Shown: one piece after another, positions 12,466 through 48,347 of the stretch
How positions within the stretch are numbered: the first letter of the stretch is position 1
Layout of the letters: every line of letters begins with the position of its first letter
DNA from: Candidatus Omnitrophota bacterium
GTDB taxonomy: Bacteria > Omnitrophota > Gorgyraeia > B26-G9
Reading direction: 5' to 3'
DNA length: 64,000 nucleotides
NCBI GenBank assembly: GCA_043814605.1
Contig: JBDRJV010000002.1
Span: 26,374-90,373 of the forward strand
Position numbers and translations under genes: made by a program
The notes under the pieces: model-generated
What the model was told of the DNA's origin: nothing
Seen by the model: only the letters and a program-made list of their open reading frames with translations
The model's database searches: none

Positions 12466-12531
12466 ATTTACCTTTTACCTCTGATTATAAGTACCATGGT
12501 TAAGGCTAGGATGAACAAAATTTAATATTCT

Positions 12532-12651
12532 TTAAATTTTTTCCATTGGCTGATCACAGCAAACTAATTCTCCGCCGCCAACTTTTGTTACTGTAACCTC
12601 ATTCCCGCAGACATTACAACGGTATTTCTCGCCTATTTTCTCTACTGACAT
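12532..12651 (-). CDS. Desulforedoxin-like Fe(Cys)4 protein of 39 aa. It is not in the supplied ORF track.
   Basis: The translation MSVEKIGEKYRCNVCGNEVTVTKVGGGELVCCDQPMEKI shows the CxxC…GGG.LVCC motif of the desulforedoxin family and of the Dfx N-domain. Confidence 0.6.
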   Translation of the reverse strand: MSVEKIGEKYRCNVCGNEVTVTKVGGGELVCCDQPMEKI

Positions 12652-12675
12652 TTTACGCCCCCTTAGTTAATTAAC

Positions 12676-13398
12676 CTACCTTCTCCTTGTTTTGGCTAAT
12701 AATCTTAATATTTCAAGGTAAAGCCAAACCAACGTAACCATTAAGCCAAACGCACCGTACCATTCCATATATTTCGGAGCTCCGCTCTGTACCCCTTTTT
12801 CAATAAAATCAAAATCCAGCACCAGATTCAACGCAGCAATCACCACAACAAATAAACTAAATCCGATACCTAATGGCCCGCTGTCATAAATTAACGGTAT
12901 CTGGATTTTAAAAAAACTGAGAATCATACTAATGAAATAATAAACCGCAATGCCGCCGATTGCGGCAAAAACCCCCAAGCGAAAATTATCCGTAACTTTT
13001 ATTAATCTTGTCTTGTACACAAAAAGTAAAGAAAATAATGTGCCAAACGTCAGGCCTACTGCCTGTATTACTATTCCCGGATAAGTTTTTTCAAAAAATG
13101 CAGAAATCCCGCCCAGTAAAACCCCTTCAAAAACTGCATAAATCGGCGCAGTAACCTGTGCCCATTCTTTTTTAAAAATAGTCAGTATTGCCATAATCAC
13201 ACTGCCGATCATTGCCGGCCAGAATAACGGCATTAATTTCTGAGGTTCACTCCATATCCAGGATGCACTAATCAAAATAATAAAAAGCAAGGCAAAACTC
13301 TTGTTCGTTGTCCCCTGAATTGTCATTACCTCCGTAGAACCATAACTTCCTACATTTGAAAATACATCACTTCTTAAAGCCGGATTGCTTGTGCGCAT
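12676..13398 (-). CDS. Bax-inhibitor-1/YccA-family membrane protein (putative).
   Basis: 240 aa with seven predicted TM helices and a polar N-terminus. The layout resembles YccA/BI-1. Confidence 0.45.
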   Translation of the reverse strand: MRTSNPALRSDVFSNVGSYGSTEVMTIQGTTNKSFALLFIILISASWIWSEPQKLMPLFWPAMIGSVIMAILTIFKKEWAQVTAPIYAVFEGVLLGGISAFFEKTYPGIVIQAVGLTFGTLFSLLFVYKTRLIKVTDNFRLGVFAAIGGIAVYYFISMILSFFKIQIPLIYDSGPLGIGFSLFVVVIAALNLVLDFDFIEKGVQSGAPKYMEWYGAFGLMVTLVWLYLEILRLLAKTRRR

Positions 13399-13522
13399 GG
13401 TTTATCTCTCCTTTCTTTTAAGTACTAAAAAAATTTGCATTATCGAGTAAAAGTTTTATTTTTCTCTTTTACCCTATAAATTGTCTACTTTTATTCTCTG
13501 CGTTTTGTCCTGATTTTGATAT

Positions 13523-15454
13523 TTACACAGCCTCCTGCTTGAAAAATAACACCGCCAAGGGTGGGACAACTAATGAAAGAGAATAATATTTCCCTTGAGC
13601 AGGTAAAGGCGCAGCTTCCACTCCGCCTAAATTTCCTTGGCCGCTTCCGCCATATTCTTTGGCATCGCTATTTAAGATTTCTTTCCAAAATCCGCCTAAC
13701 GGAATACCAATCTTATAATTATTACGTGGAACCGGTGTAAAATTGCATATAACTAAAACAGAATTCTTTCTTGTTTTATTAATCCTCAGAAAACTAATTA
13801 CGCCTCTTTCCCAATCCTGGCAATCCACCCATTCAAATCCCTGACTATCAAAATCATTTTCATAAAGAGCTGGTTCGGTTTTATAAAAAAAGTTCAATTC
13901 CTTAACCCATCTTTGTAATTGAGCATGATTTTCGCACTCTAATAAATTCCACTCGAGACTATTCTCATGATTCCATTCTGAGCGCTGGCCAAACTCTTGC
14001 CCCATAAACAGCAGTTTCTTCCCGGGATGAGCATACATATATCCGAACAAAACCCTTAAATTAGCAAATTTTTGCCAATCATCTCCTGGCATTTTGTCGA
14101 GCAAAGACCCTTTACCGTATACTACCTCATCATGAGAAATTGACAAAAGAAAATTTTCTGTAAAAGCATAACATAAACTAAACGTCAACTGGTTGTGATA
14201 AAATTTTCGAAAAACAGGATCTTTGGAAAAATAATCCAGAGTATCATGCATCCAACCCATATTCCATTTTATCCCAAACCCCAGCCCTCCCATAAAAGTC
14301 GGCTGGGAAACCATTGGCCAGGAGGTAGATTCCTCCGCAATCATCTGTACATCCGGATAATTTTCATAAACTGTAAGGTTAAGTTTTTTTATGAAATTCA
14401 CTGCCTCGATATTTTCTTTTCCTCCGTATTCATTCGGAATCCATTCCCCTGCTTTGCGGGAATAATCAAGATACAACATTGAAGCAACAGCATCTACGCG
14501 GATACCGTCGATATGATATTTATCTAACCAGAATAACGCGCTGCTGATTAAAAAACACTTTGTTTCATTTCTGTTGTAATTAAAAATATAGCTTTTCCAA
14601 TCTGGGTGAAATCCTTTTCGGGGATCCGCATGTTCAAACAAATGCGATCCATCAAAATAAGCCAACCCGTGCCCGTCCGAAGGAAAATGCGATGGAACCC
14701 AGTCTAGGATAATCCCGAAACCTCTTTCATGCAAATATTCAATCAAGTACATTAAATCCTGAGGAATGCCGTATCGGCTGGTAGGAGCAAAATACCCGAT
14801 TGTTTGATACCCCCAGGAGCCATAAAACGGGTGTTCCATAAGCGGCAGAAACTCTACATGCGTAAAGTTTAGATCATGCAAATACTGGGCTAGTTGTTCT
14901 GCAGATTGCCGATAATTCAAAAACTTTCCCGGCTCTGCCGGCTGCTTTTGCCGCCAGGAACCTAGATGCACTTCATAAATCGAAATCGGAGCGGACAAAG
15001 AGTTTTTTTGATAACGGTTTTTCATCCACAAAACATCTTTCCAGGCATATTCAAGATCCCAGACAATCGATGCAGTTTGAGGTGGAATTTCAGAATAAAA
15101 AGCAAAAGGATCTCTTTTTTCCGTGCGGTAATTATTATTTTTCGAAATAATACAATACTTATATAAATTTCCTTTCTGCACACCGGGAATAAATCCCTCC
15201 CAAATACCGGAACTATCCCACCGCGGTGCCAGAGGATGGGATTGATCATTCCATTCATTAAAATCTCCGATCACACTGACTTGTTTGGCATTCGGAGCCC
15301 AGAGCGCAAAACAAACCCCTTCCACGCCTTCATGATACATTAGGTGCGAACCTAACTTTTCATATAAACGGAAATGGCTTCCTTCCCGAAAAAGATAAAT
15401 ATCTTGTTCTGTTAATAAACTAATGTTATGTTTAATTATACCAATATCAGTCAT
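13523..15454 (-). CDS. glgB: 1,4-alpha-glucan branching enzyme (GH13), short form.
   Basis: Catalytic region DGIRVDAVASMLYLDYSR and GH13 conserved blocks. It lies downstream of treS-mak. Confidence 0.9.
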   Translation of the reverse strand: MTDIGIIKHNISLLTEQDIYLFREGSHFRLYEKLGSHLMYHEGVEGVCFALWAPNAKQVSVIGDFNEWNDQSHPLAPRWDSSGIWEGFIPGVQKGNLYKYCIISKNNNYRTEKRDPFAFYSEIPPQTASIVWDLEYAWKDVLWMKNRYQKNSLSAPISIYEVHLGSWRQKQPAEPGKFLNYRQSAEQLAQYLHDLNFTHVEFLPLMEHPFYGSWGYQTIGYFAPTSRYGIPQDLMYLIEYLHERGFGIILDWVPSHFPSDGHGLAYFDGSHLFEHADPRKGFHPDWKSYIFNYNRNETKCFLISSALFWLDKYHIDGIRVDAVASMLYLDYSRKAGEWIPNEYGGKENIEAVNFIKKLNLTVYENYPDVQMIAEESTSWPMVSQPTFMGGLGFGIKWNMGWMHDTLDYFSKDPVFRKFYHNQLTFSLCYAFTENFLLSISHDEVVYGKGSLLDKMPGDDWQKFANLRVLFGYMYAHPGKKLLFMGQEFGQRSEWNHENSLEWNLLECENHAQLQRWVKELNFFYKTEPALYENDFDSQGFEWVDCQDWERGVISFLRINKTRKNSVLVICNFTPVPRNNYKIGIPLGGFWKEILNSDAKEYGGSGQGNLGGVEAAPLPAQGKYYSLSLVVPPLAVLFFKQEAV

Positions 15455-15474
15455 ATAACTAGTTTTGCTGGTTT

Positions 15475-18400
15475 TTACTTTTTAATTGCTTTTCTTATCT
15501 TAAAATTATTTAAAACCTGCTTGATTCCCCTTAAGGGAATAATTATCCAATCGAGTCTATTATTTAATTCATATCCTAATTCATATATTGCCTTATCTAA
15601 AAGATAAATCTGCAGGAGATTATTAAATTCAACATCGGTTTTAGGCAAAAATTCTGCCCTGCCTATTGTTTGAAAATATGACTTAACAAATATATTACTC
15701 ACATATAAATACCAATCTTCTGCAGCTGATTCCAAAATAGCAACATCTTCGTCTCTGACTGATTTATTCAGGAATAAAGTCACATAAGCGGCATAATGGA
15801 AAGAGCGCAGCATACCCGCAATATCACGAATCGCTGACCTTTTCAGCCTTCTTTCGCTTAGCGGCCTGGCTGGCTCGCCTTCAAAATCAATAATAATAAA
15901 ATCCTTACCCGTAAAAAGAACTTGCCCTAAATGATAATCCCCATGGATACGTATTTTTTTAGCAGAGTATTTTGTCTGCATGATTAATTTTAACCTCTGC
16001 ATAATTTGTTTCTCAACAGATAATACTGATTTTGCTTCCTGCTGTAAACTTTCTGATAATTTGCTTAAATTTTGTTTTAACAGCCTAAAAACAAGTCGTT
16101 CCTGGCTTCCCATGGATTGAAAAACCGAACGCTGATACAGCAAAGAAAAAATCTCTGGTTTAAAATCAGGATTTTGCGCCTCTTCTGAGAGGTTGATGTG
16201 CATTTCCCCTGTACGCTGGCCTAATTTTTTAATCATTTCCAAATATATGCTGTCAATTAAGCTGTTTGTTTCAATAAATTTCAGCTTCTTGGCCTGTTGC
16301 GTGAAAACTTCTGCGGAAGCTTCTTTTTTAAGTTCCTTAGATTTAGATAATACAAGGTCAAAATAATTTTTAACATGGTCTAAAGTATATTTCCATGCGT
16401 CCGATTCACTCGGGATATAACTTTGCAATAAACATATCGACATTGGTTCATTAACATTGCGGCTGTTATATTCGATAGACCCGGCAAAATTAGGTATATT
16501 TTGAGAACTCTTTTTTTCTGTAAGATACTTCATGATTTCAATATCCGGGTTAATTCCAGACTCGAGTTTTCTGAATAATTTCATGAAGAATATGTTCGCA
16601 TATAATATTGATGTATTACTTTGTTCTGCTTTAAGCAGTACCGAAGGTAACGGCATTTTTTGGTTCCCCAATAGCGCTTTTAATTTTTTGCCGGATTTCC
16701 CCACCAACACAGTCCCCTCACTCGCAACCCGTTTTTTCTTGATAATAATATCTAATAACATCTCATGCAAATATGGGTTATAAACCCCGTCATAAAGAAA
16801 ACCTTCTTTTCGGTTAATAAACAGCCGACAGACAATGCCTTTATGAAAATGCTGTATTTGGACTTTATTCCCGTTTATAAAAACAAATGACAAAGGCAAT
16901 AGGTATGTTTCCGGCATACCGCCTGCATAATTGACACTAATAAACAATAATTTAACAATGTCTTTTTTATGCTCAAGAGAAAGAATATCAGAAATTCTGA
17001 TTGTCCGTATCGTCCGAGACTTTCCGCCAAACCAGCGGCACCCATGCAAGTATTGTGGTAATATTTCAACTTCCAATTTGCGTATATTTTCAAGATTAAA
17101 TAACTCTTCCCATGATTTTTCCAATCTTATTTTCGGTGATTTCTGTAATGTTTCAGCAGAGGTTACCTCTTGTTTTTTTAATAAAAACCAAAAGTGGTTA
17201 TGCGGTCCTAAAGTAATGGTATAAAGGTTGTCTTTGATCACCGAAAAATTATTCTGGCTAAACACTTCCTCGGGAACAAAACCACTATATTCTTTCAAAT
17301 CCAGATCAACGGTTTGTGAAAACCGCGATAAATTAATTACAATCAACATGCTTTCATTTTTATATTCTCTAATAAAACTTAAAATCTTAGGATTTTCAGG
17401 GTATAAAAATTTGATATTCCCCTGGCTAAAGGCCTTAAATCTTTTACGCATAGCAATCACACGTTTCATCCACCATAAAAGTGATGAAAAGTTACTATCC
17501 TGTGTTTCCACATTAACAGTTTCGTAATGATATTCTGAGTCTATGATTACCGGTAAATATAACTGCTGGGGGTTGGCTTTTGAAAAACCCGCGTTTCGGT
17601 CTGGACTCCATTGCATTGGCGTGCGCACGCCATCGCGATCCCCCATAAATCTGTTATCACCCATACCAATTTCATCGCCATAATAAATTATCGGCGTACC
17701 CGGCAGAGAAAAAAGCAAGATGTTCATTAATTCAAATTTACGCCGGTTATTACTCAATAAAGGCAGTAATCTTCGCCTAATCCCTAAATTAATCTTGGAG
17801 CGTGCATCAGTCGCATATGCCCGATACATATAATCGCGTTCTTCATCTGTAACCATTTCTAATGTTAACTCATCATGGTTGCGCAAAAATATTGCCCATT
17901 GAGACAAACGGGGAATTTTAGGTGTCTGCTCCAGAATATCAATAATCGGAAACCGGTCTTCCATTTGAACACTCATGTACATTCGAGGCATAAGGGGAAA
18001 ATGAAAAGCCATATGGCATTCATCCCCTGTTCCGAAATATTCAACCGCATCTTCAGGCCATTGGTTAGCTTCAGCCAGCAGCATACGATTCTTGAATTTA
18101 CTGTCAACATGTTTTCTTAATTTTTTTAAAAAATTATGGGTTTCCGGTAAATTTTCACAGTTAGTCCCTTCGCGTTCAAAAAGATAAGGCACCGCATCCA
18201 GCCTCACTCCATCTACTCCCAGGGAAAACCAGAAATCAGTTACCCGGTATATTGCCTTCAAAACACTGGGGTTGTCAAAATTCAAATCCGGCTGATGGGA
18301 ATAAAACCGATGCCAGTAATAAGCTTTGGCTTCTTCTGACCATGACCAATTAGATACTTCAAAATCTTTAAAAATAATCCGGGCATCTTTATATTTTACT

Positions 18401-18843
18401 GCATTATTACTCCACACATAATAATTACGATGATTTGAATTTGCTTTCGATTGCTTGGCCCGAATAAACCAGGGATGCTGGTCTGAAGTATGATTAATCA
18501 CAAGTTCTGTAACCACTCTTAAGCCTCTTGCGTGAGCCGCTTTTAATAATTCTTTGAAATCTTTTAAAGTTCCGTATTGTGGATTAACACCATAATAATC
18601 AGCAATGTCATAACCGTCATCTTTTAAGGGCGAAGGATAAAAAGGCAATAACCAAATAACTGTTATCCCCAGATTTTTTAAATAATCCAATTTCTGAATC
18701 AATCCCTTAAAATCACCAATGCCATCGCCATTGCTGTCACAAAAGGTTTTAACATGCAATTGGTAAATTACCGCATCTTTATACCATAAGGGATTATTTT
18801 CAACACTAAAACGGGAACTACCCATAACTATTCCTTTCTTCAC
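15475..18843 (-). CDS. treS: Trehalose synthase / maltokinase fusion (TreS-Mak/Pep2).
   Basis: The N-terminal GH13 domain carries DGVRLDAVPYLFEREGT. The C-terminal ~450 aa has the maltokinase motifs HGDYHLGQVLF and IIIDFEGEP. Confidence 0.85.
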   Translation of the reverse strand: MKKGIVMGSSRFSVENNPLWYKDAVIYQLHVKTFCDSNGDGIGDFKGLIQKLDYLKNLGITVIWLLPFYPSPLKDDGYDIADYYGVNPQYGTLKDFKELLKAAHARGLRVVTELVINHTSDQHPWFIRAKQSKANSNHRNYYVWSNNAVKYKDARIIFKDFEVSNWSWSEEAKAYYWHRFYSHQPDLNFDNPSVLKAIYRVTDFWFSLGVDGVRLDAVPYLFEREGTNCENLPETHNFLKKLRKHVDSKFKNRMLLAEANQWPEDAVEYFGTGDECHMAFHFPLMPRMYMSVQMEDRFPIIDILEQTPKIPRLSQWAIFLRNHDELTLEMVTDEERDYMYRAYATDARSKINLGIRRRLLPLLSNNRRKFELMNILLFSLPGTPIIYYGDEIGMGDNRFMGDRDGVRTPMQWSPDRNAGFSKANPQQLYLPVIIDSEYHYETVNVETQDSNFSSLLWWMKRVIAMRKRFKAFSQGNIKFLYPENPKILSFIREYKNESMLIVINLSRFSQTVDLDLKEYSGFVPEEVFSQNNFSVIKDNLYTITLGPHNHFWFLLKKQEVTSAETLQKSPKIRLEKSWEELFNLENIRKLEVEILPQYLHGCRWFGGKSRTIRTIRISDILSLEHKKDIVKLLFISVNYAGGMPETYLLPLSFVFINGNKVQIQHFHKGIVCRLFINRKEGFLYDGVYNPYLHEMLLDIIIKKKRVASEGTVLVGKSGKKLKALLGNQKMPLPSVLLKAEQSNTSILYANIFFMKLFRKLESGINPDIEIMKYLTEKKSSQNIPNFAGSIEYNSRNVNEPMSICLLQSYIPSESDAWKYTLDHVKNYFDLVLSKSKELKKEASAEVFTQQAKKLKFIETNSLIDSIYLEMIKKLGQRTGEMHINLSEEAQNPDFKPEIFSLLYQRSVFQSMGSQERLVFRLLKQNLSKLSESLQQEAKSVLSVEKQIMQRLKLIMQTKYSAKKIRIHGDYHLGQVLFTGKDFIIIDFEGEPARPLSERRLKRSAIRDIAGMLRSFHYAAYVTLFLNKSVRDEDVAILESAAEDWYLYVSNIFVKSYFQTIGRAEFLPKTDVEFNNLLQIYLLDKAIYELGYELNNRLDWIIIPLRGIKQVLNNFKIRKAIKK

Positions 18844-20876
18844 ATAAAATAATCAAAATCTTGTTCGCGGCGTGTATGCCGTTTAATATTTATGATATGC
18901 GCCGGAGACCGCTGCGGATCTAATTCAATGTAACTTGTCGGCCCTTGCCAAATATATTTATCACCGCTTAAAAGATCATACGCTAAATATGACCGTTCTT
19001 TTTCAATCCCCAGTTCAGCCAGCGGCATTTGTAAATACCCGGTCTGAGTATGACGCGGATCAAGATTCACCACCACAAGAATAATATTTGAATAATCTGC
19101 GGTTGCCTTGTAATAACTTATTATAGAATCATTATTAACTTCACAAAATCTTATGTTTCGCGTAATTTGTAAAGCAGGATTTGTTTTGCGAATCTTATTG
19201 AGCCTGGCTAATACATCTTTTAAATGCCCGGTTTTATTCCAATCCCATTGTTTTATCTCATATTTTTCCGAGTTAAGATATTCTTCCCGGTTAGGAATTG
19301 CTTCGCAAACGCATAATTCAAACGCCGGCCCGTATATTCCGAAATTTGAAGAAAGGGTTGCCGCGAGAACCGCTCTGATAATAAAAGCCGGCCGGCCCCC
19401 ATATTGCAAGTGTTCCGGCAGAATATCCGGAGTATTGGGCCAAAAATTTGGACGGAAATATTCCGCAACTTCTGTTTGGGTTAATTCTGTTAAATATTCA
19501 ATAAATTCACGTTTTGTATTACGCCAGGTAAAATACGTATATGATTGGCTAAACCCTCCTTTTGCCAGACGATACATGATATTCGGACGGGTAAAAGCCT
19601 CGGCTAAAAATATTGTTTCCGGGTAATCACTTTTTATTTTTGAAATAAGCCAGTCCCAGAAGATAAATGGTTTTGTGTGCGGATTATCTACTCGGAAAAC
19701 CCGTACTCCCTGCTTTATCCAGAACATGACAATACTTTTTAATTCTTCCCAAAGATCTTGGACATTGTCAGTTTCAAAATTAATTGGTAAAACATCTTCA
19801 TATTTTTTGGGCGGATTCTCCGCATACTGGATCTGCCCATCGGGACGCCACTTAAACCAATGCGGATATTTCTGGACATAGGGATGATCCGGAGAACACT
19901 GATAAGCTAAATCTAAAGCCACTTCTAAATTATATTTTTTTACCTCATTAATAAAATGTTTAAACGATTGAATCGTCCCTAATTGAGGATGGATTGTTTT
20001 ATGCCCTCCCTCCTTTGCCCCAATCGCCCAAGGACAACCCGGTTCATTTTCTTTACATTTAACAGAATTATTTGCACCTTTTCTGTTAGTTTTACCAATC
20101 GGATGAATCGGCGGAAGATAAATAATATCAAATCCCATGCGGGCAATTTCCGGGATTAATTTTTCACAATCTTTTAATGAACCGTGTTCCCCCGGCTGCG
20201 CACCCCAAGAACGCGGAAAAAACTCATACCAGCTGCTAAAAAGTGCTAATTTCCTCTCTACATGAACTCTCAATTCTTTATCATAGGTAACACTCTCTTT
20301 AATATTAAGATTTTTCTGCATTATATTTAATAACTCATCCTTCATCAGAATCAAGGTGAGAATATTAACATCTTCACTTGCCTTTAGCTGATTAGAATAT
20401 GAATTAATAATTTTAAGTATTGATTTTTCTTTGATTCTTTTTTTTGTTTTCTCCAGAATCTGAATCCCTATTTTTAAATCTACAGCAATATCCTGTGCAG
20501 CATTAATCTTTTTCTTCAGATTATTGCGCCACGTACAAAATTCATCTATAAACCCGCGGATACTGTAATAATAATTTTCTTCCTTTTCTATAGTAAAAGA
20601 CCCAACCCAGCGATCATTGCCTAAAGGCTTCATATAAACTTCCTGCCACCCCTTTTCCTTGACCGTACGATAAAGAAGCACAGCCACAATCTCCTCATGT
20701 CCATCCGCAAAGATATTTGCCCGGACAACAACACTTTCTCCGACTGTTCTTTTAATAGGAATCAATCCTGTATCGATTTCAGGGGAAACTTTTTCAATCA
20801 TAACCCGTGAGAAAAAATTAACCTTTTTTTTAGGCCCATTTTTTTTATCCGCGGGAATATTAGTCCGTTTGGGCAT
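18840..20876 (-). CDS. glgE: Alpha-1,4-glucan:maltose-1-phosphate maltosyltransferase GlgE (GH13_3).
   Basis: The GlgE N-domain pattern (…VSPEIDTGLIPIKRTVGESVVV…NDRW) plus a GH13 catalytic core. It overlaps the treS start by 4 nt. An internal Met at about 20801 is an alternative start. Confidence 0.85.
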   Translation of the reverse strand: MPKRTNIPADKKNGPKKKVNFFSRVMIEKVSPEIDTGLIPIKRTVGESVVVRANIFADGHEEIVAVLLYRTVKEKGWQEVYMKPLGNDRWVGSFTIEKEENYYYSIRGFIDEFCTWRNNLKKKINAAQDIAVDLKIGIQILEKTKKRIKEKSILKIINSYSNQLKASEDVNILTLILMKDELLNIMQKNLNIKESVTYDKELRVHVERKLALFSSWYEFFPRSWGAQPGEHGSLKDCEKLIPEIARMGFDIIYLPPIHPIGKTNRKGANNSVKCKENEPGCPWAIGAKEGGHKTIHPQLGTIQSFKHFINEVKKYNLEVALDLAYQCSPDHPYVQKYPHWFKWRPDGQIQYAENPPKKYEDVLPINFETDNVQDLWEELKSIVMFWIKQGVRVFRVDNPHTKPFIFWDWLISKIKSDYPETIFLAEAFTRPNIMYRLAKGGFSQSYTYFTWRNTKREFIEYLTELTQTEVAEYFRPNFWPNTPDILPEHLQYGGRPAFIIRAVLAATLSSNFGIYGPAFELCVCEAIPNREEYLNSEKYEIKQWDWNKTGHLKDVLARLNKIRKTNPALQITRNIRFCEVNNDSIISYYKATADYSNIILVVVNLDPRHTQTGYLQMPLAELGIEKERSYLAYDLLSGDKYIWQGPTSYIELDPQRSPAHIINIKRHTRREQDFDYFM

Positions 20877-30643: not shown

Positions 30644-32074
30644 TTAATTCTTTGTTAATATAAAAAAGTAAGTAACCCCAAAATCGTCTGATTCAACAGA
30701 AAGAGCCGCAGGGCTAAACCCGCTATCATAAAACAACTTTACCACTTCATCCTTATTGCGGGGAATAAAAGACCAATTACAAAACCAGTCCGGCGCAATA
30801 GGCGCAAAAGTCTTTTCTTTATTCCTGTGAGTTACCAGCAATTTTCCCCCAGGAGCTAAAAGTTCATATAATTCTTTAAGTAAATCTGCCAGAATATCAT
30901 TTTTTAAATAATCCATTAAATTTATACTATAAATTAAATCTTTTTTTCCGTAACAGTGGGCCGATGCTTTATCATTAATTAAATCCAAAACATCTTTTTT
31001 CACTAATTTAAATTCAATATTTTCCGGTAGCTCTTTTAAAGTTGAGTCCCGCAAAAATTTTAAAGCTTCGAGGTTAGAATCAAAACAAGTAAAAATAATG
31101 TGTTTTTTTGTTTTAATTTCAAACAGTAACTCTCTAATTTCCCGGCACGAACCACAATTGAGATTTAAAATATTAATCTGAGCCAGCGGGCTCACTTGGA
31201 TAAAACTTTTAATTTTTTCCTTTAAATTATCCTTCCTCTGCCGTATGGCTACAGCATAAGGACTCTTTAAAAATACTTTATCAAAACAAAAACCAATATT
31301 ACTAGATATCGGCTTATTCTCATAAATCATTTCATTAATTTCAAAATCCCTTTTGTATCCCGGTTCGCTTTCTAACGCTTTTTTCACAATTATGCTTTTA
31401 TAAATCCAGGTTCCGGCTAGTGTTCTAAAGTTATCCTTAACTTTTTGTATCATTGTTTTATCCGAAATCAATTCTTCCAAACAATACCCTTTTAATAAAA
31501 TTTTATCATTAATATGCTCTAATTCTTTTTCTTGGCCGGGAATATATTCTTGTTTTTTTAAAGTGGAACAAAAATCCGAGACTTCATTTATATAATCTAA
31601 AACATCTTGAGAAAAGAAATGAGATATTTCTTTTTTTTCTGATAAATTTATATCTTCATTTAAAAATTTGTCGATTTGAATTTTAATTAACTCTTTTCTT
31701 AAAAAATCTCTTTTTTCATTGCCGATATTTAAAAATTCTGCCCCGTATAAAGATGTATTTTTTGATTCATTTTTATTCCAAATAATCCGGGCTTTGGCTT
31801 TAAAAGTCCGGCGATTATTCGGCAAATGTATTTTTAAGGAAATATGGGAAAGAGGAATTTTTTCTGATTGCTTGCTTTTTGGGAATTGTTTAGCGTCTTT
31901 GAATTCTTCCGGTTTTTTAGATTTCTTCGATTTTTTAGATTTTTTAGATAGGCTAAAGCTTAATCCTGTTTCACTAAAATCAATTACACTCGCACTTATC
32001 TTATCGGAAAGATCAACTTTAAGACGAGTTTTTATCCGAGGGCACAATCTTTTTTCTTCACTGCTTAAAACCAC
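30644..32074 (-). CDS. PilZ-domain / class-I SAM-dependent methyltransferase fusion protein.
   Basis: N-terminal RxxxR (RLCPRIKTR) and D-x-S-x-x-G (DFSETGLSF) PilZ motifs. A KKSKKSKKSKK low-complexity linker follows. The C-terminal Rossmann methyltransferase motifs are ILNLNCGSC, DLIYSINLMDYL and LAPGGKLLV. Confidence 0.6.
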   Translation of the reverse strand: MVLSSEEKRLCPRIKTRLKVDLSDKISASVIDFSETGLSFSLSKKSKKSKKSKKPEEFKDAKQFPKSKQSEKIPLSHISLKIHLPNNRRTFKAKARIIWNKNESKNTSLYGAEFLNIGNEKRDFLRKELIKIQIDKFLNEDINLSEKKEISHFFSQDVLDYINEVSDFCSTLKKQEYIPGQEKELEHINDKILLKGYCLEELISDKTMIQKVKDNFRTLAGTWIYKSIIVKKALESEPGYKRDFEINEMIYENKPISSNIGFCFDKVFLKSPYAVAIRQRKDNLKEKIKSFIQVSPLAQINILNLNCGSCREIRELLFEIKTKKHIIFTCFDSNLEALKFLRDSTLKELPENIEFKLVKKDVLDLINDKASAHCYGKKDLIYSINLMDYLKNDILADLLKELYELLAPGGKLLVTHRNKEKTFAPIAPDWFCNWSFIPRNKDEVVKLFYDSGFSPAALSVESDDFGVTYFFILTKN

Positions 32075-32272
32075 CAGAAACCACCTTCTTTCATAAGTGG
32101 ATAGCTTTTTATTTTTACAAGAAGATCTTATCTGCCCCCTTTCCTTTAGTTAATTATATCTGAATATGACGATAAACTCAAGGTCAAAACAAAATATTAA
32201 TTTTATTTTAATAGCACAACGGCTTAAAGATTTTACCCTTAAGCCGTTGAAATTATTAATAGTTAACTTAAT

Positions 32273-33229
32273 TTATTTTTTGCGGCCTGAGCCTCCCATT
32301 CCACCGCGGCTGCCACCTCTTTGCTGCTGTAATTGGCCTTGACCTTGGCCCGGACCTTTATCACGATTATAACCAGGTCCTCCAGGGCCTCTGCCTTGGC
32401 CTGGGCCTTGCCCTAGACCTCCTTGGCCATCACGTTTATCTTTAATATCCTCTCTGCGATCTCTGATATCTTCCCGTCTATCTTGACGGTCTTCACGCCG
32501 ATCCATAACATCTTCTCTGCGATCGCGACGATCTTCACGACGGTCAAGGACATCTTCACGTCTATCCATTACATCTTCTGCTTTATCTTTGCGAATATTT
32601 TCACCTAATTTATTTATTTGTCTTTCTAGCCTGGCTTTCTCTGCTGGATCAGTTGTATTAGTCAGCTGCTCTTGAAGATTACTCATTTTATCCGCTTTAA
32701 TTTTATCATCCCGGCGATCACGAATATCTTCTTGCCTATCTCTGATATCCTCCTGCTTATCCCAATAATCTTCTTTCCGGTCACGTATATCTTCTCTGTG
32801 ATCCATTACGTCTTCACGGCGGTCACGGACATCTTCACGCTGATCGCGATAATCTTCACGCCGGTCTCTAAATTGTTCACGATGTTCTTGCCCGGCCTGT
32901 TTCTCTGTATCATCAACTTGACCGTCATTATTGCGGTCTAAACGGTTCTGAAATCTTTCTCTAACTCTTTCTCTTTCTTGTTCATCTATTTTTCCATTAT
33001 TATTAGCATCTATTTTCTGCTTACGTTCTTGCCAGCGGTGCCTTTCTTTTGCATCTATTGCTCCGTCATCATTGCGGTCAATACGATCCTGCTTTGAACC
33101 CGGGCGAAAACTTCCAACACCTGTTCCAGCCTCACCTGTAGACTCTTGCGCAAAATTCAAACCGCAAAAAACAAAAATAAATGCTACCAAAAATACTCCT
33201 GCCCATAAAAATTTACTGCTTTTAAACAT
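32273..33229 (-). CDS. Secreted repeat protein with EF-hand-like loops, RED/heptad repeats and a Gly/Gln-rich tail.
   Basis: Signal peptide. Three DxNxDGxID..E loops (DRNDDGAIDAKE, DANNNGKIDEQE, DRNNDGQVDDTE). More than 15 tandem DRREDxx 7-aa repeats, encoded by a 21-nt periodicity. The C-terminus reads GQGGLGQGPGQGRGPGGPG…GGSRGGMGGSGRKK. Confidence 0.5.
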   Translation of the reverse strand: MFKSSKFLWAGVFLVAFIFVFCGLNFAQESTGEAGTGVGSFRPGSKQDRIDRNDDGAIDAKERHRWQERKQKIDANNNGKIDEQERERVRERFQNRLDRNNDGQVDDTEKQAGQEHREQFRDRREDYRDQREDVRDRREDVMDHREDIRDRKEDYWDKQEDIRDRQEDIRDRRDDKIKADKMSNLQEQLTNTTDPAEKARLERQINKLGENIRKDKAEDVMDRREDVLDRREDRRDRREDVMDRREDRQDRREDIRDRREDIKDKRDGQGGLGQGPGQGRGPGGPGYNRDKGPGQGQGQLQQQRGGSRGGMGGSGRKK

Positions 33230-33322
33230 TTCGCCACCTCCTTAATTTATCCTTTTCCTGAACTTTGAACCCTTAAAAATTAAATATTAAATATTCAAAT
33301 AATATATAATATTTTATATGTT

Positions 33323-33739
33323 TTATTTCACAAAATCAAAGTAAATTGCTAAAATCAAAGCCACAGCCGATAAAACAAAAATAAACAAATAATTAATTTG
33401 CTCCTTTTTAGAGCTCAGACTGCAAAGAATTTCACCTAAGAAATTATAATCGGAATCTTTTAGTTTTTCACGCGCATTAATTCTCTGGAAAATTTGTGTT
33501 TTTTCTATTCTTTTCGACCGGGAAATTATAATTTTAAATTTATAAACAAAAAACACCGTAAATCCAATTATCCCCACATACCAGGAAATTTTAGCATGCA
33601 AAGGATTGACATGAATTAATATTGTAATTAAGCGGATTGCTACAGTAGCAATTATGCCGATTAAGAAAAATATCCAGGAACTAAAAGAATCCTTACAATT
33701 TCTATAACTTGAGCAGGTTTTACATTGTTTTTTGTCCAT
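33323..33739 (-). CDS. Hypothetical Cys-rich membrane protein.
   Basis: CKTCSSYRNC N-terminus followed by about three TM helices. No family was recognised. Confidence 0.4.
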   Translation of the reverse strand: MDKKQCKTCSSYRNCKDSFSSWIFFLIGIIATVAIRLITILIHVNPLHAKISWYVGIIGFTVFFVYKFKIIISRSKRIEKTQIFQRINAREKLKDSDYNFLGEILCSLSSKKEQINYLFIFVLSAVALILAIYFDFVK

Positions 33740-33749
33740 TTAATTATCC

Positions 33750-34988
33750 TTATAATTTACCGTTATGAAATCCCGGGGGAACCTTTTCCCAAGGGTATCC
33801 CTGTGCAGCTTTTTCAACTCCCAAACAAAAAAGTTTTTTCATTCGATCCGGATCAAACATTTCCTTTCGCTCAAACACATAGTCAGAAGGGATATAAGCC
33901 AAATTAAAATCACCTTTTGAGTTTTCGGTAAAAATATAAAGCCGGTACAAATCTCCCAATCCTTGCGCATTGACCATTGTATCTACCGTGCGTTCTGTAA
34001 TTGTACTCAGTTTATCCGGAATTTCTTTCCACACCGGGTTTAAATATCCGTTACGAATAATATATAATTGTAATTTTGTATGATAAATATCTATGCCTCT
34101 TTTATCAAAAGCATCTCTAAATCCTTGCAAAACACAAAAAAGAAAAAACACTTGTTTGGCTGTGCCTCCGTCAACATGCATTTCGTCATAACTTTTTCCC
34201 TCAACCTGAACATCGAAAAATACCGGAGGAAAAGCCACGGGAATAGCTGCCGAGGCTAAAATAACCTTACGAAATAATTTTAACGATTCTTTGTTTCCAA
34301 ACGAGGCAATTCTGCCCATATCCCAAATCACTAGGCTTTGTGCATCTAAATTCGTTGTCCCGACATAAAGACGCCTGCCTTTGGCATGTTCTTTCGCAAT
34401 TTCCGTTAATAACTCCAGATCAATATGTTTATCCAATAATCGCTTAAGCGGCCAGTTACTGGCAAAAGAATTACTGAAAAAAAGCGTGAATAAGCTTCTT
34501 TTCCGCATAATATCCCGGGTGGAAATAGAAGTATAAAGGCATTCAAGTTTTTCATCATATTCACTGCCCAAAAAAGCAAACGGAGCAATAATTGCTCCGG
34601 TACTAATACCGGTAACAACTTTAAAAACAGGCCGGGTTCCGTGTTCGGACCAGCCTTTTAAAACCCCGGCTCCATAAGCTCCGTCTGCAGAACCGCCGGA
34701 AATTGCCAGAACCGGATAAACTTTCACCCCATTTTCATCTTGTAAAAAATATTGGCCGGACTCCTGAACCATAGAAGTAACCATATCTTGATAAATCATT
34801 TCATTAGGGCCATCGGCAAAAATCCGGATATCTTCCATTCCATAAATTTGTGCTTTTTGATACAAATTAACCGGTATTGCGTGACGAAACCTGGCACATC
34901 CGGAGATAATAAAAATTATCACAAAAAAAACTGTTAAATTTTTAAAAAAAAGGCAGTTTCTGGACAATTGAACCTCTTTAATTATCAT
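33750..34988 (-). CDS. Patatin-like phospholipase.
   Basis: Oxyanion GGSADGAYGAG (GGxxxG), nucleophile GISTGAI (GxSxG) and catalytic-Asp DGG (VDGGTA). It has an N-terminal signal/TM segment. Confidence 0.8.
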   Translation of the reverse strand: MIIKEVQLSRNCLFFKNLTVFFVIIFIISGCARFRHAIPVNLYQKAQIYGMEDIRIFADGPNEMIYQDMVTSMVQESGQYFLQDENGVKVYPVLAISGGSADGAYGAGVLKGWSEHGTRPVFKVVTGISTGAIIAPFAFLGSEYDEKLECLYTSISTRDIMRKRSLFTLFFSNSFASNWPLKRLLDKHIDLELLTEIAKEHAKGRRLYVGTTNLDAQSLVIWDMGRIASFGNKESLKLFRKVILASAAIPVAFPPVFFDVQVEGKSYDEMHVDGGTAKQVFFLFCVLQGFRDAFDKRGIDIYHTKLQLYIIRNGYLNPVWKEIPDKLSTITERTVDTMVNAQGLGDLYRLYIFTENSKGDFNLAYIPSDYVFERKEMFDPDRMKKLFCLGVEKAAQGYPWEKVPPGFHNGKL

Positions 34989-35659: not shown

Positions 35660-36712
35660 TTAAAAAATATTTTCGTATTCAGCATAACCTTCTTTTACTA
35701 AATCTTCCCGCGGGATAAATCTTAAAGCTGCAGAATTAATGCAAAACCGCTCTCCCGTGGGTGCTGGACCATCATCAAACACATGGCCTAAATGTGAATC
35801 TGCCTTTTTGCTGCGAACTTCGATTCTTTGCATCAACAAACTGTTATCTGCTTTCTCAACTACATTATCCGGATTAAGCGGCCGGGTAAAACTTGGCCAG
35901 CCTGTGCTGGATTTGAATTTATCCTTTGAGCTAAACAATGGTTCTCCGGAAACAATGTCCACATAAATCCCCTCCTTTTCATTATCCCAAAATTCATTGT
36001 CAAAAGGCTTTTCTGTGGCGCACTCTTGGGTTACGGAATATTGCAAAGCAGTAAGCTTGGATTTAAGCTTTCCCTCTTTCGGTTTATTAAAATTTTTCAC
36101 ATTCTCTTGCCCTGCCTTGACTGCTTGATTTTTTTTTATGTAAGCTTCCCGGCCGGAACCTTGTTTATACATTTTATACTGTGCGGGATTTTTCTGGTAA
36201 TAATTTTGATGGTACTCTTCCGCCGGATAAAAAATCATCGCGGGGATAATTTTTGTCGCAATCGGCTTATTGTATTTGCCGGAATTATCCAGTTTAGCTT
36301 TTGAAGCTTGAGCTTTGATTTTTTGCGCTTGATTATGATAGAAAATCGCCGTCTGATATTGAGAACCGCGGTCGCTAAATTGGCCTTGGGCATCCGTGGG
36401 ATCAATTTGCTGCCAATAAATATCCAGCAAATCATGATAATCAACCTTTTGCGGATCATAAGTTATCTGGACTGCTTCCAAATAACCAGTTTGCCCGGTT
36501 GAAACTTTCTCATAAGTTGGGTTTGGCTGCTTGCCTCCGGTATAGCCCGGAACAACTTCCTTAACCCCGTCAATTTTTACATAAGGCGGCTCCATGCACC
36601 AGAAACATCCGCCGGCAAAAGTTGCTTTTTCAATTATTTCCTTAGCCGTTAAATCAGTCTGCATCAGACACACTCCTGTGATTAACAGAAATATAATAGT
36701 TTTTAACTTCAT
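35660..36712 (-). CDS. msrAB: Exported bifunctional peptide-methionine sulfoxide reductase MsrA-MsrB.
   Basis: Signal peptide ([23 protein letters not shown]). The MsrA site is [11 protein letters not shown]. The MsrB motifs are [10 protein letters not shown] and RFCINSAAL. The ORF extends to 36781, but the start at MKLK is preferred. Confidence 0.85.
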
Positions 36713-36767
36713 ATCATTTATTCCAAACCTGCTGTAAATTAATAAACAGTTTTTGCGCAAAAAATAA

Positions 36768-37211
36768 TTATAAATCCACACTCGCTATCCAATTACCGTG
36801 CAGATTACAAAGTTCAATAACCGTAAGCTTACCCGCTTCTGCTTTTAAATGCAACGCTGCAGCAGGATTAAGATTTTTTGGGGTTAAGATTACTCTTGAT
36901 ATGAATTTCTTATCTAAATAAAAATCTATATGCTGGATAGAATGTTCTTGAGTCATGGGATGTTTTATCTGTCCCATTTTAACATGCACATCATTACAGC
37001 CATCCGGAATCAGGCCGCATTTTTTTTCAACCACAATTACGGGAATATGTTTTTTCTCCAGCTCATTGAGGTTATTGCTATCCGCGGGCATTTTTATCAC
37101 GTTTTCTTTTACAATGAATTCTGACTTCGGTGCCCCGCAAACAGGACACTTTTCCGGGGCATTTTCCCCTAATTCAATAAATCCGCAAACCTGACAAACT
37201 ATTCCTTTCAT
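36768..37211 (-). CDS. Superoxide reductase with an N-terminal rubredoxin-like domain of the rubrerythrin C-terminal type.
   Basis: The N-terminus reads [27 protein letters not shown] (CxxCG-x12-CPxCG). The SOR centre II ligands are HIPVI, HPMT, HSIQH and LCNLHGNW. Confidence 0.75.
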
Positions 37212-46151: not shown

Positions 46152-48347
46152 TTATTTACGTTTTAAAAGCAGTTTGACCCGAGCTAACAACCTGACTCCG
46201 TCAAAAGGTTTGGCAATATAATCATCAGCTCCGGCATCTAATCCTTCAATCTCACTACTTGTATCTTTTTTAGCGGTAAGGAGAATAATCGGAATCCCCG
46301 CTGTTTTTAATTCAGACCGGATCCTGCGCGTTGCTTGAAATCCGTCCATAACCGGCATCATTACATCCATAATTAATAAATCCGGCGCTGTTCTCATACA
46401 GGCTTCAAAAGCTTCCTGGCCGTTTTCCGCTTCAATAATATCAAACCCTGCACTTTTTAAGCGCATACCCACAAGCTTACGAATATTTTTTTCATCATCT
46501 GTAACCAGAACCAGTGGTTTTTCCCGCAGAGGTTTTTGTTTAATAAGTTCTGTCTCAATCTGTTTCGGTTTTCCTTCTGGTTTTACTGCTGGTTTTACTT
46601 CTGGCTGGCCCTCAACTAAAGATTTTTCTTCAACCTGTTCTAAAACTGAAGTCTGCGTAACCTCTTCCAGAGTTGTTATCCCTAAAGCAACTTTCTCTAT
46701 CCCCGCCTCAGCCAAACTCCTTAACCCGGAATTTTGCGCCATAAGCGCAATTTCTGTTTGGGTTGCATTTTCTGAAACAAGAGCTTTAATTTTTTTCGTA
46801 AATTCAAATAGTTCCACAATCGCTACGCGGCCTAAATATCCGCTAAAACTGCATTCCGCACACCCCTTACCGTGATAAAATTTAGAGATACTGTATTTTT
46901 TAATAAAATTGGCAAATTTTTCCTGTAATTTTTTATCCGGGTTATATCCTTCTTTACAATGCGGGCAAATAACCCGCACCAAACGCTGCGCAATAATCAA
47001 AACTACAGAAGAAGCAATTAAATATGGCTCAAGGCCAATATCCAGAAGGCGGCTGATTGAAGATACCGCGTCATTAGTGTGCAATGTGGAAAAAACCAGA
47101 TGCCCGGTTAACGCAGCTTTAAACGCAACCTCTGCGGTCTCTGAGTCCCGGATTTCCCCGACTAAAATCACATCCGGGTCCTGGCGCAAGATACTACGCA
47201 GTCCGGCAGCAAAAGTAACATCTTTTTTCGGGTTAATCTGAATCTGGTTAATCCCTTCCATTAAATATTCAATCGGGTCTTCAACTGTAACAATATTTTT
47301 TGTCTCATTTTTTATATAAGCCAAGGCCGCATAAAGCGTGGATGTTTTCCCGGACCCTGTCGGCCCGGTAACTAACACCATTCCCTGCGGCCGGGTAAAA
47401 ACTTCTTTCATTATTTCCAATTCATTCGGAGCAAAACCTAATGTATCTATTTTAATTTTGGCTTTTTGCGGGTCTAATACGCGAAATACAATTTTTTCTC
47501 CGTAATAAGCCGGGATAATGGAAATTCTCAAATCAATTTTCCGGTTATTATACATTATATCTGCCCGGCCGTCTTGCGGTTTTCTTGTCTCCGCAATATC
47601 AAGATTAGAAAGAATTTTTACACGGGCTGTAAATTGCGGATACATTTCACTGGGAATTTTCATAATATTTTTTAAATAACCGTCCACGCGGTAACGTACA
47701 TCCACAAAATTTTCTTGCGGCTCAACATGAATATCCGTCGCCCGGTTACGGATAGCGTCGCTTAAAATAACTTTGACTAATCTGACCACCGGAGAACGTT
47801 CTAAATCAAATCTATTTGCATCAGTTATTTTGCCATCCGATGATTTATCATCCTTGATTACCTCTAAAGAAGAATCATCAACAATATTTTTTAATAAATC
47901 ATAGAGCGAATCATCAATATGATAGTGTTTTTCAATCTGGGTGGCAATATCTGTTTTACTGGCCAATACCGGCTGAATCGGGAATTTAACTAATAACCTT
48001 AAATCATCTAAAGCCACAATGTCCTGGGGATTACTCATAGCCAGAAGCAAATTGTTATTTTCCGTACGGATGGGGAAAACTCCGTAACGCCTGGCTAAAT
48101 CATAGGAAATTACTTTTATTGCATGATCATCTATTGTTTGGCCATTTAAGTTAATGATCGGCATTTTAAAAAAGCGCGATAAAACTTCCATCATTTTCTC
48201 TTCTGCAATAAATCCCATTTCTACTAATACATCTTGGATCGGGATTTTTGCACCGAGTTGACGCTGGCGCGCTTCTTGTAACTGAGCATCCGTAATAAGC
48301 TTTTCCTCAATTAAAACAGTTATTAATGTTTTAAACACAAGCTTCAC
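46152..48347 (-). CDS. GspE/PilB-family secretion/pilus ATPase fused to a C-terminal receiver domain.
   Basis: T2SSE_N-like N-domain, Walker A GPTGSGKTST, the VGEIRD motif and the His-box TLHTND. The C-terminal ~130 aa is a REC domain (LVLVTDDEKNI…DLLIMDVMMP…ILLTAKKD). Confidence 0.85.
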   Translation of the reverse strand: MKLVFKTLITVLIEEKLITDAQLQEARQRQLGAKIPIQDVLVEMGFIAEEKMMEVLSRFFKMPIINLNGQTIDDHAIKVISYDLARRYGVFPIRTENNNLLLAMSNPQDIVALDDLRLLVKFPIQPVLASKTDIATQIEKHYHIDDSLYDLLKNIVDDSSLEVIKDDKSSDGKITDANRFDLERSPVVRLVKVILSDAIRNRATDIHVEPQENFVDVRYRVDGYLKNIMKIPSEMYPQFTARVKILSNLDIAETRKPQDGRADIMYNNRKIDLRISIIPAYYGEKIVFRVLDPQKAKIKIDTLGFAPNELEIMKEVFTRPQGMVLVTGPTGSGKTSTLYAALAYIKNETKNIVTVEDPIEYLMEGINQIQINPKKDVTFAAGLRSILRQDPDVILVGEIRDSETAEVAFKAALTGHLVFSTLHTNDAVSSISRLLDIGLEPYLIASSVVLIIAQRLVRVICPHCKEGYNPDKKLQEKFANFIKKYSISKFYHGKGCAECSFSGYLGRVAIVELFEFTKKIKALVSENATQTEIALMAQNSGLRSLAEAGIEKVALGITTLEEVTQTSVLEQVEEKSLVEGQPEVKPAVKPEGKPKQIETELIKQKPLREKPLVLVTDDEKNIRKLVGMRLKSAGFDIIEAENGQEAFEACMRTAPDLLIMDVMMPVMDGFQATRRIRSELKTAGIPIILLTAKKDTSSEIEGLDAGADDYIAKPFDGVRLLARVKLLLKRK

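Follow-up and report, generated by a model that had tools for sequence, protein, structure and literature searches.

The question raised by one gene in a 64,000-nucleotide stretch of a Candidatus Omnitrophota genome (GenBank contig JBDRJV010000002.1; the whole stretch is referred to below as the window) is what kind of protein combines an apparent signal peptide, three EF-hand loops, many highly charged heptads, and a glycine-rich tail, and what it might do for the cell. The open reading frame (ORF) at 32273..33229 on the minus strand is a real gene, as is indicated by the ORF being maximal, by the strong Shine-Dalgarno site that precedes it, and by its homologues. The feature is likewise real and largely as first described, and is here reinterpreted as a member of an exported-hairpin family that has a family-level link to extracytoplasmic function (ECF) sigma factors. 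The reading as a whole, which is held with moderate confidence, is that the gene encodes a Sec-exported, modular EF-hand/RED-heptad hairpin protein with an accessory role in the periplasm associated with envelope stress. The ORF and the parts of its product are as follows, in window coordinates.

32273..33229, minus strand: complete ORF of 318 codons plus the stop codon, from the ORF call and translation
33149..33229, minus strand: signal peptide, residues 1–27, from the translation and a predicted helix at residues 5–27
33044..33079, minus strand: EF-hand loop 1, residues 51–62, DRNDDGAIDAKE, additional with respect to the homologues and of low model confidence
32975..33010, minus strand: EF-hand loop 2, residues 74–85, DANNNGKIDEQE, from the translation, PDB matches, and the model
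32903..32938, minus strand: EF-hand loop 3, residues 98–109, DRNNDGQVDDTE, from the translation, PDB matches, and the model
32699..32866, minus strand: proposed hairpin arm A, eight heptads D-R-R-E-D-h-R, residues 122–177, within the predicted helix 107–191
32588..32698, minus strand: proposed hairpin tip, residues 178–214, KADKMSNLQEQLTN-TTD-PAEKARLERQINKLGENIRK, from the alignment and the model, with the turn at T192–D194
32441..32587, minus strand: proposed hairpin arm B, seven heptads, residues 215–263, within the predicted helix 195–269
32276..32440, minus strand: Gly/Gln-rich basic tail, residues 264–318, predicted to be disordered

The 15 heptads fall into two blocks, eight in residues 122–177 and seven in residues 215–263, parted by a conserved nonrepeat segment of 37 residues (178–214); these counts were made by eye, and a regular expression gives 7 + 7. 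The initial annotation had described one block of more than 15 tandem seven-residue repeats and was right as to the strength of the heptads but not as to their number or continuity. Self-identity of the protein is 0.59–0.71 at lag 7, as against 0.02–0.32 at every other lag between 1 and 13, and self-identity of the DNA is 0.61 at lag 21, as against about 0.2–0.4 at the non-multiple lags tested, which agrees with the 21-nucleotide periodicity originally remarked upon. Tandem Repeats Finder reports periods of 21, 42, and 63 in the second block only, with matches of 66–76%. These lag identities and match levels indicate that the heptad repeat is conserved as protein but degenerate as DNA. Within the heptads of the family to which the protein belongs, Glu4 is invariant, position 5 is Asp in 88% and Asn in 12%, the basic positions are Arg in 67–76%, and position 6 is Val or Ile in ∼69% and Arg or Lys in ∼22%; Asp1 was fixed by the search pattern but is also invariant in MAFFT alignments.

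An AlphaFold2 model of the window protein, made with 13 aligned relatives and having a mean predicted local distance difference test score (pLDDT) of 78, contains a helix at residues 107–191, a turn at 192–194, and a helix at 195–269 (pLDDT 90–98), followed by a disordered tail. The residues at heptad position 6 in arm A are Y127, V134, V141, I148, Y155, I162, and I169, together with I177, which lies in the degenerate final heptad of the arm and is displaced from the register by one residue; those of arm B, read in the opposite direction, are I262, I255, R248, V241, R234, V227, and V220, to which the tip adds I212. When these are paired in order (127/262, 134/255, 141/248, 148/241, 155/234, 162/227, 169/220, and 177/212), the residue numbers of each pair sum to 389, and the tip pairs M182/L208, L185/I205, and L189/L201 sum to 390; constant register sums are a requirement of a hairpin folded at residues 192–194. 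The tip itself has ordinary a/d hydrophobic residues, with its turn at T192–D194. In the family, 155 of 201 proteins have exactly two in-register heptad runs, and the lengths of the two arms, which range from 3 to 10 heptads, are correlated (r = 0.82), although it should be recognized that family members share ancestry, so that there are fewer independent events than the correlation suggests. The mean absolute difference between arms is 0.46 heptads, compared with 1.65 after permutation, and none of 10,000 permutations reached 0.46. The gaps between the arms are quantized at 16, 22, or 51 residues and carry Gly/Pro/Asn-rich turn motifs, as follows.

16-residue turn: RDAxHDGGxxDxxED (n = 107)
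22-residue turn: WDAxHNxPPGTxAxRRDK (n = 17)
51-residue turn, type i, that of the window protein: DDKIKA...L.NTTDPEE...NI.RDK.ED (n = 15)

The type i tip is found in the window protein and 14 other members. A second model, of a relative with the 16-residue turn (P0063), has a helix at residues 105–162, a five-residue break, and a helix at 168–208. The case for pairing of the two helices lies in the register sums and in the covariation of arm length, rather than in contacts from the model, and on these grounds an antiparallel two-helix hairpin appears well supported. At 1.5 Å for each of 85 residues, the resulting rod would be ∼12 nm long.

The charged repeats of the window protein invite comparison with single α-helix (ER/K) domains, with which they share a dense alternation of Arg/Lys and Asp/Glu in long helices, but the Val/Ile seam, the conserved turn, and the matched arms point to a paired hairpin instead of an isolated helix. 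The likeness to eukaryotic RED/RD-repeat proteins is compositional only; the window protein is bacterial and, by prediction, exported.

No curated family in Pfam or NCBIfam covers the repeat region; the only near-threshold Pfam match is EF-hand_5, and NCBIfam has nothing near threshold for the window protein. Sequence and profile searches of the PDB gave no match to the hairpin region, and literature searches on the repeat sequence, DUF3106, Omnitrophota with EF-hand, and ECF with charged heptads found nothing relevant. The initial view that the protein belongs to no recognized family is borne out by this database check, which gave no confident match to a described family, but it needs qualification because the protein is not an orphan and belongs to a large family that crosses phyla. 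Its homologues form 132 clusters in a set of 5.8 billion proteins, and the family occupies at least 178 loci in the species representatives of GTDB; an exhaustive profile search returned 18,370 matches, mostly unrelated multi-EF-hand proteins, from which no clean family count can be taken. The best matches, among those listed, are from Omnitrophota. Other carriers are found in Nitrospirota, Planctomycetota, Desulfobacterota (Desulfobacterales), Gamma- and Alphaproteobacteria, Bdellovibrio-like bacteria, and Elusimicrobia, and those in Bacteroidota include many Chitinophagaceae and Cytophagales; Emticicia aquatica and Lacihabitans soyangensis are cultured carriers.

The window protein shares with the family a signal peptide, two matched heptad runs, and a conserved type of turn. 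Among 193 sampled members, an N-terminal hydrophobic segment is present in 171, EF loops in 38 (∼20%; N-terminal to the hairpin in 35 of the 38), a Gly-rich tail in 43, and a C-terminal basic pair in 85. Some members have a UVR-motif-like helical module in place of the EF hands, and the Bacteroidota forms consist of a signal peptide and the hairpin only. To judge from these sequences, the predicted hairpin is the constant core of the family, and the N-terminal modules and tails are its variable parts. The N-terminal helical module of these siblings was considered as a Spy/CpxP-like element, a proposal that was rejected because it matches the UVR motif only. Two further variants were observed: the short Bacteroidota forms (100–150 residues; L045, L077, L078, L079, and L025) have no Gly-rich tail and share the C-terminal motif R-(R/H/K)-G-(S/T)-(W/Y), and an Omnitrophota member (L059:5641-6666) has three EF loops between its heptad arms, at the presumed tip, in addition to one N-terminal loop, so that the Ca2+ module is placed differently there.

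Linkage of the family to ECF sigma factors is observed in other genomes. In about 14 loci, which come from several phyla, an ECF sigma gene is the co-directional neighbor of the family gene; a zf-HC2 anti-sigma factor is usual in these loci, and a DUF3106 protein is encoded in six. The closest GTDB relative among the matches listed, which has EF hands and 53% identity and comes from an Omnitrophota genome (locus L008), lies in the gene order sigma, zf-HC2 anti-sigma, DUF3106, RED. An “AAC” −35 element is a general hallmark of ECF promoters. A perfect GAAACTTTT-N13-GTTTAA is present within about 110 nucleotides upstream of the family gene in loci L005, L008, L012, L013, and L014, of which L012 encodes the same protein as L002–L004; with one mismatch permitted in each element, this motif has only 20 matches in 1.72 Mb. 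Of 57 family genes, 16 are preceded by a relaxed form of the ECF motif, as compared with 4 of 818 other ORFs, but the relaxed motif was defined after the data had been seen, and the P value of the enrichment is optimistic. ECF-type promoters precede many family genes whether a sigma gene is adjacent or not; both adjacency and promoter are frequent but not universal in the family, and neither is a strict mark of membership.

The proteins encoded beside the family genes have features of their own. The zf-HC2 anti-sigma factors have short, very acidic periplasmic tails with repeats of IIENLDILENLDLLEN or EEVFDDTEILQELGEEDLNEEE (L008:4504-5154, L005:4067-4573, L027:4343-4846, L006:1655-2320, and relatives), and these tails could, by their sequences, be electrostatic partners of the basic DUF3106 and RED proteins. 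The DUF3106 protein of L008 (L008:5138-5890) has a few RED-like heptads, REDIRGREEDYRDRQED, and a Gly-rich basic tail ending in GGSRK. DUF3106 (PF11304) thus resembles the hairpin proteins in being an exported, charged, helical-repeat protein of the same ECF operons and, in the L008 copy, in its heptads and tail; however, its repeat, W/F-x-x-L/M-S/P-P-E-E/Q-R, is different and strongly basic, and the window protein has no Pfam match to it.

The EF-hand module of the window protein is complete as far as ligands are concerned. In all three loops, positions 1, 3, and 5 are Asp or Asn, position 6 is Gly, position 8 is Ile or Val, position 9 is Asp, and position 12 is Glu, and every canonical ligand position is filled in the loops that begin at residues 51, 74, and 98; the three canonical 12-residue loops that had been called (D51–E62, D74–E85, and D98–E109) fit at all positions. 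Consecutive loops are separated by spacers of 11 and 12 residues. In the AlphaFold2 model, helices surround the loops at residues 56–73, 83–97, and from 107 onwards, those flanking EF2 and EF3 having pLDDT values of 83–89 and EF1 being modeled with poor confidence; the EF2/EF3 pair is kept in relatives, whereas EF1 is extra in the window protein. The EF2/EF3 pair and the extra EF1 would be expected to bind Ca2+, and the EF loops are the sole sequence-based case for Ca2+ binding in this protein.

Matches of the window protein in the PDB are confined to the EF-hand region, and the best are to lanmodulin (LanM; 6mi5 and 8fns) and other EF-hand proteins, lanmodulin standing first; the E value is 5e-4 when the single sequence is searched and 1e-7 with the family profile. 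The idea that the protein is a lanmodulin-like lanthanide binder is consistent with lanmodulin being the closest solved structure by sequence, and with several shared traits: both are exported bacterial proteins (the window protein by prediction), both have a compact loop spacing of ∼12 residues in which one helix serves two loops, and both have Asp at loop position 9. The hallmarks of lanmodulin are four EF hands, a separation of 12–13 residues, and Pro at loop position 2 in at least one EF hand (PMC10232371). The spacing in the window protein is similarly compact, with one spacer inside this range and the other a residue short of it. However, the window protein has three EF hands and has Arg, Ala, and Arg at position 2. 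It is also 318 residues long, with a hairpin and tail of 210 residues attached, and it scores 17.4 bits with the NCBIfam LanM model NF053806, for which the cutoff is 135. A Pfam scan of 18 genes of the window gave nothing suggestive of lanthanide use. Membership in the lanmodulin family was rejected on EF-hand number, the lack of Pro2, and the NF053806 score, so that the lanthanide reading is largely refuted as a matter of family membership and, as a functional proposal, is extremely unlikely. In sequence terms, the window protein is an EF-hand protein that is like LanM in spacing only.

In the favored explanation, the window protein would be exported by the Sec pathway, most likely to the periplasm. 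Its N terminus consists of MFKSSK, an 18-residue hydrophobic core, and then NFA|QE, with no lipobox, and a matching [FY]A|Q(E)E junction is seen in the homologues; these features point to cleavage by signal peptidase I at A27|Q28 and agree with the signal peptide of the initial annotation. The three closely spaced EF-hand loops would bind Ca2+, and the arms of eight and seven heptads, with the conserved helical tip, would form an antiparallel hairpin rod in which every heptad contributes a single hydrophobic residue to the seam, with salt bridges between Arg and Asp/Glu on either side. The Gly-rich tail noticed at the outset, a Gly/Gln-rich segment of 55 residues with a net charge of +7 that ends in GSGRKK, is predicted to be disordered and could contact anionic components of the envelope. 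The family would be a direct target and a frequent operon partner of ECF sigma/zf-HC2/DUF3106 modules in other genomes, and its role may be that of a structural or protective effector or of an anti-sigma modulator, by a logic analogous to that of CpxP/Spy or RseB; in the EF-hand subfamily, Ca2+ occupancy might serve as a cation input. An accessory role in envelope stress is proposed because the family is under ECF control in other genomes.

CpxP, Spy, ZraP, and CnrX are exported, highly charged, all-helical hairpins of envelope-stress regulons, and the CnrX gene accompanies those of an ECF sigma/anti-sigma pair. The window protein would resemble them in kind, as an exported helical hairpin, but not by homology, and their regulatory logic matches the family-level ECF linkage, although the window copy has no such link. 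A Pfam search gave no match of the window protein to LTXXQ or Metal_resist at E ≤ 10, and the window protein differs from all four in its strict heptads with one hydrophobic residue each, its matched arms of variable length, and its EF-hand and Gly-rich modules. RseB/RseC-type genes resemble the family genes of L005, L008, and L027 in encoding a periplasmic protein downstream of sigma and anti-sigma genes, but they are unrelated in fold and sequence, and many family genes are stand-alone.

Several points weigh against this explanation. The AlphaFold2 output consists of secondary structure and pLDDT without contacts, so that antiparallel packing is not directly seen; the predicted template modeling score (pTM) is 0.43 for the window protein; and a Foldseek comparison of the model with the PDB returned nothing below E = 1, with only short helix or hairpin fragments. 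The shared ancestry behind the arm-length correlation and the late definition of the relaxed promoter motif, noted above, belong here also. With respect to the EF hands, the best Pfam match, EF-hand_5, is below threshold (23.3 bits with a gathering cutoff of 25.9), and the residue that follows each loop, residue 13, is Arg or Lys and not hydrophobic. No ECF sigma, anti-sigma, or DUF3106 gene is present in the 64 kb of the window, and no ECF-type promoter lies within 130 nucleotides upstream of the gene; because the window copy has neither, the link to stress is carried over from relatives. Finally, no experiment on any family member was found in the literature.

Other explanations share much of the same evidence. 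A tentative possibility is that the hairpin acts on the zf-HC2 anti-sigma factor: alone or together with DUF3106, it would attach to the short, very acidic periplasmic tail of that protein and so set the threshold for ECF activation, with binding tuned by EF-hand Ca2+ or by ionic conditions. RseB acts on RseA and CpxP on CpxA in an analogous manner. Such a modulator would account for the placement of family genes in sigma/anti-sigma operons at about 14 loci and for anti-sigma tails made up of acidic repeats of the IIENLDILENLDLLEN type, opposite strongly basic DUF3106 partners, of which the L008 copy has RED-like heptads and the same Gly-rich basic tail; however, the many family genes that stand alone with their own ECF promoters are more effector-like, and there is no such module in the 64-kb window. 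A broader form of the proposal, that the RED hairpin, DUF3106, an anti-sigma factor with an acidic “ENLD” tail, and an ECF sigma factor would make up an undescribed envelope-signaling module based on electrostatic pairing of helices, with a tunable rod quantized in heptads and with Ca2+ sensed in the EF-hand subfamily, is speculative and unlikely. The length of Lpp sets the width of the periplasm, and the hairpin could by analogy be a periplasmic spacer or scaffold, a rod of fixed length with its cationic tail on anionic envelope polymers, that sets or buffers the geometry of the envelope. The whole-heptad variation of the arms, matched from one arm to the other, the helices modeled at very high confidence in the window protein and P0063, and a basic tail ending in Arg or Lys in the 85 sampled members already mentioned are all compatible with a spacer. 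We nevertheless consider it quite unlikely, since no lipobox, membrane anchor, or known peptidoglycan-binding domain was found in the sequence or by Pfam, the short Bacteroidota forms have no tail, and ECF-induced expression is more in keeping with a stress protein than with a constitutive architectural protein.

The initial annotation had likened the charged composition to that of calcium-binding or mineral-nucleating proteins, in which case the repeats themselves would bind Ca2+ for sequestration or nucleation. The greater invariance of Asp1, Glu4, and Asp5, which lie on one helix face, than of the basic positions, together with the EF hands of about one-fifth of the sampled members, would fit this. 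However, the composition of the whole protein (17% Arg, 15% Asp, 11% Gly, and 9% Glu) is one of balanced charge: with 74 basic and 76 acidic residues, the mature chain has a net charge of −2 and an isoelectric point (pI) of 6.2, and the hairpin region, which is predicted to be structured, has a net charge of −8 over 163 residues, whereas known sequestering or nucleating proteins are strongly acidic. In each heptad, about three basic residues offset the acidic triad, and there are no biomineralization genes among the neighbors scanned. An acidic mineral-nucleating protein was rejected on the net charge and pI, and Ca2+ binding by the charged repeats in general is decidedly improbable, so that this part of the first description does not stand.

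The signals that surround the gene bear on whether it is expressed and whether it belongs to an operon with its neighbors. These are as follows.

33235..33243, minus strand: Shine-Dalgarno site AAGGAGGTG, five nucleotides before the ATG, read from the sequence
33306..33339, minus strand: two overlapping sigma-70-like matches, in the 3′ end of the upstream gene and the 93-nucleotide AT-rich spacer, as consensus matches only
32217..32249, minus strand: 15-bp RNA hairpin, a likely terminator or 3′ stabilizer, starting 23 nucleotides past the stop codon

The possibility that the ORF is an artifact, either unexpressed low-complexity sequence or a slippage-prone contingency locus, derives from its repetitive character, its elevated G + C content (44%, compared with 36% for the window), and the absence of the exact 318-residue product from a collection of 15 billion proteins. 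Exact look-ups of the window protein and four relatives gave no match, and a metagenome scan for close relatives found none. The exact product of another window ORF, 33750..34988, is likewise absent from the collection, which does include MFH1458792, MFH1458795, and MFH1458797, neighbors from the same NCBI contig; the gaps between the accession numbers leave room for the present ORF and for the PilZ gene, and the deposited annotation probably has other start codons for 32273..33229 and 33750..34988. A spurious ORF was rejected on the basis of the strong Shine-Dalgarno site and of residue-specific conservation across phyla, where domain order is kept and heptad position 4 is always Glu and position 5 Asp or Asn. 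A contingency locus was rejected because the DNA repeats are degenerate, as the identity at lag 21 and the Tandem Repeats Finder matches given above indicate, which makes slippage unlikely. The artifact explanation as a whole retains almost no weight.

The neighboring genes encode a PilZ-methyltransferase protein, a Cys-rich membrane protein, a patatin, and a PNPOx-like protein, as had been noted; the further suggestion that these form an operon with the gene is not upheld. Co-orientation is uninformative for operon calls in the window because 40 of its 41 ORFs of at least 200 residues are on the minus strand. The gene is preceded by the 93-nucleotide AT-rich spacer, in which there are promoter-like sites (TTGATT-17-TAAAAT and TTGTGA-16-TATTAT, each matching the sigma-70 consensus at 9 of 12 positions in the region listed above), and is followed by the 15-bp hairpin, which has a predicted folding energy (ΔG) of −22.7 kcal/mol and z = −5.6. 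A sigma-70-like promoter with 10 of 12 matches lies between this hairpin and the PilZ-methyltransferase gene. None of the PilZ-methyltransferase, Cys-rich, patatin, and PNPOx-like genes recurs beside homologues. An operon that would join the gene to the PilZ-methyltransferase, patatin, and PNPOx-like genes was accordingly rejected on the spacer, the terminator-like hairpin, the apparently separate promoters, and the lack of recurrence.

Other features of the window were observed in passing, all on the minus strand. The gene at 30644..32074 encodes a PilZ domain fused to an S-adenosylmethionine (SAM)-dependent methyltransferase, with a low-complexity insert, KSKKSKKSKK, in the PilZ domain. At 35660..37211 there is an oxidative-stress pair made up of an MsrA-MsrB fusion with an apparent signal peptide of its own and a desulfoferrodoxin-type gene with a rubredoxin-like N-terminal domain. 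A complete-looking α-glucan (GlgE-pathway) cluster at 9994..20876 comprises glycogen phosphorylase, a GlgB-like branching enzyme, a fusion of a TreS-like α-amylase-family protein with maltokinase (1122 residues), and GlgE. A T2SSE/MshE-type secretion ATPase at 46152..48347 has an MshEN domain and a C-terminal response-regulator receiver; MshEN is a cyclic di-GMP (c-di-GMP)-binding module.

What is new in this analysis is a structural model for a widespread family for which no entry was found in Pfam, NCBIfam, the PDB, or the literature. A family present in many bacterial phyla, including cultured Cytophagales, would thereby gain a name and a structural model. Its design rule is unusual, with one hydrophobic residue per heptad together with charge pairs and with arms that change together by whole heptads, and this matching of the arms would be of interest for work on coiled coils and protein design. 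The spacing of the EF hands, which is LanM-like but set on a scaffold that is not that of LanM, is relevant to the mining of metal-binding modules. The linkage to ECF sigma factors in relatives would provide a testable entry into envelope-stress signaling in poorly known phyla such as Omnitrophota.

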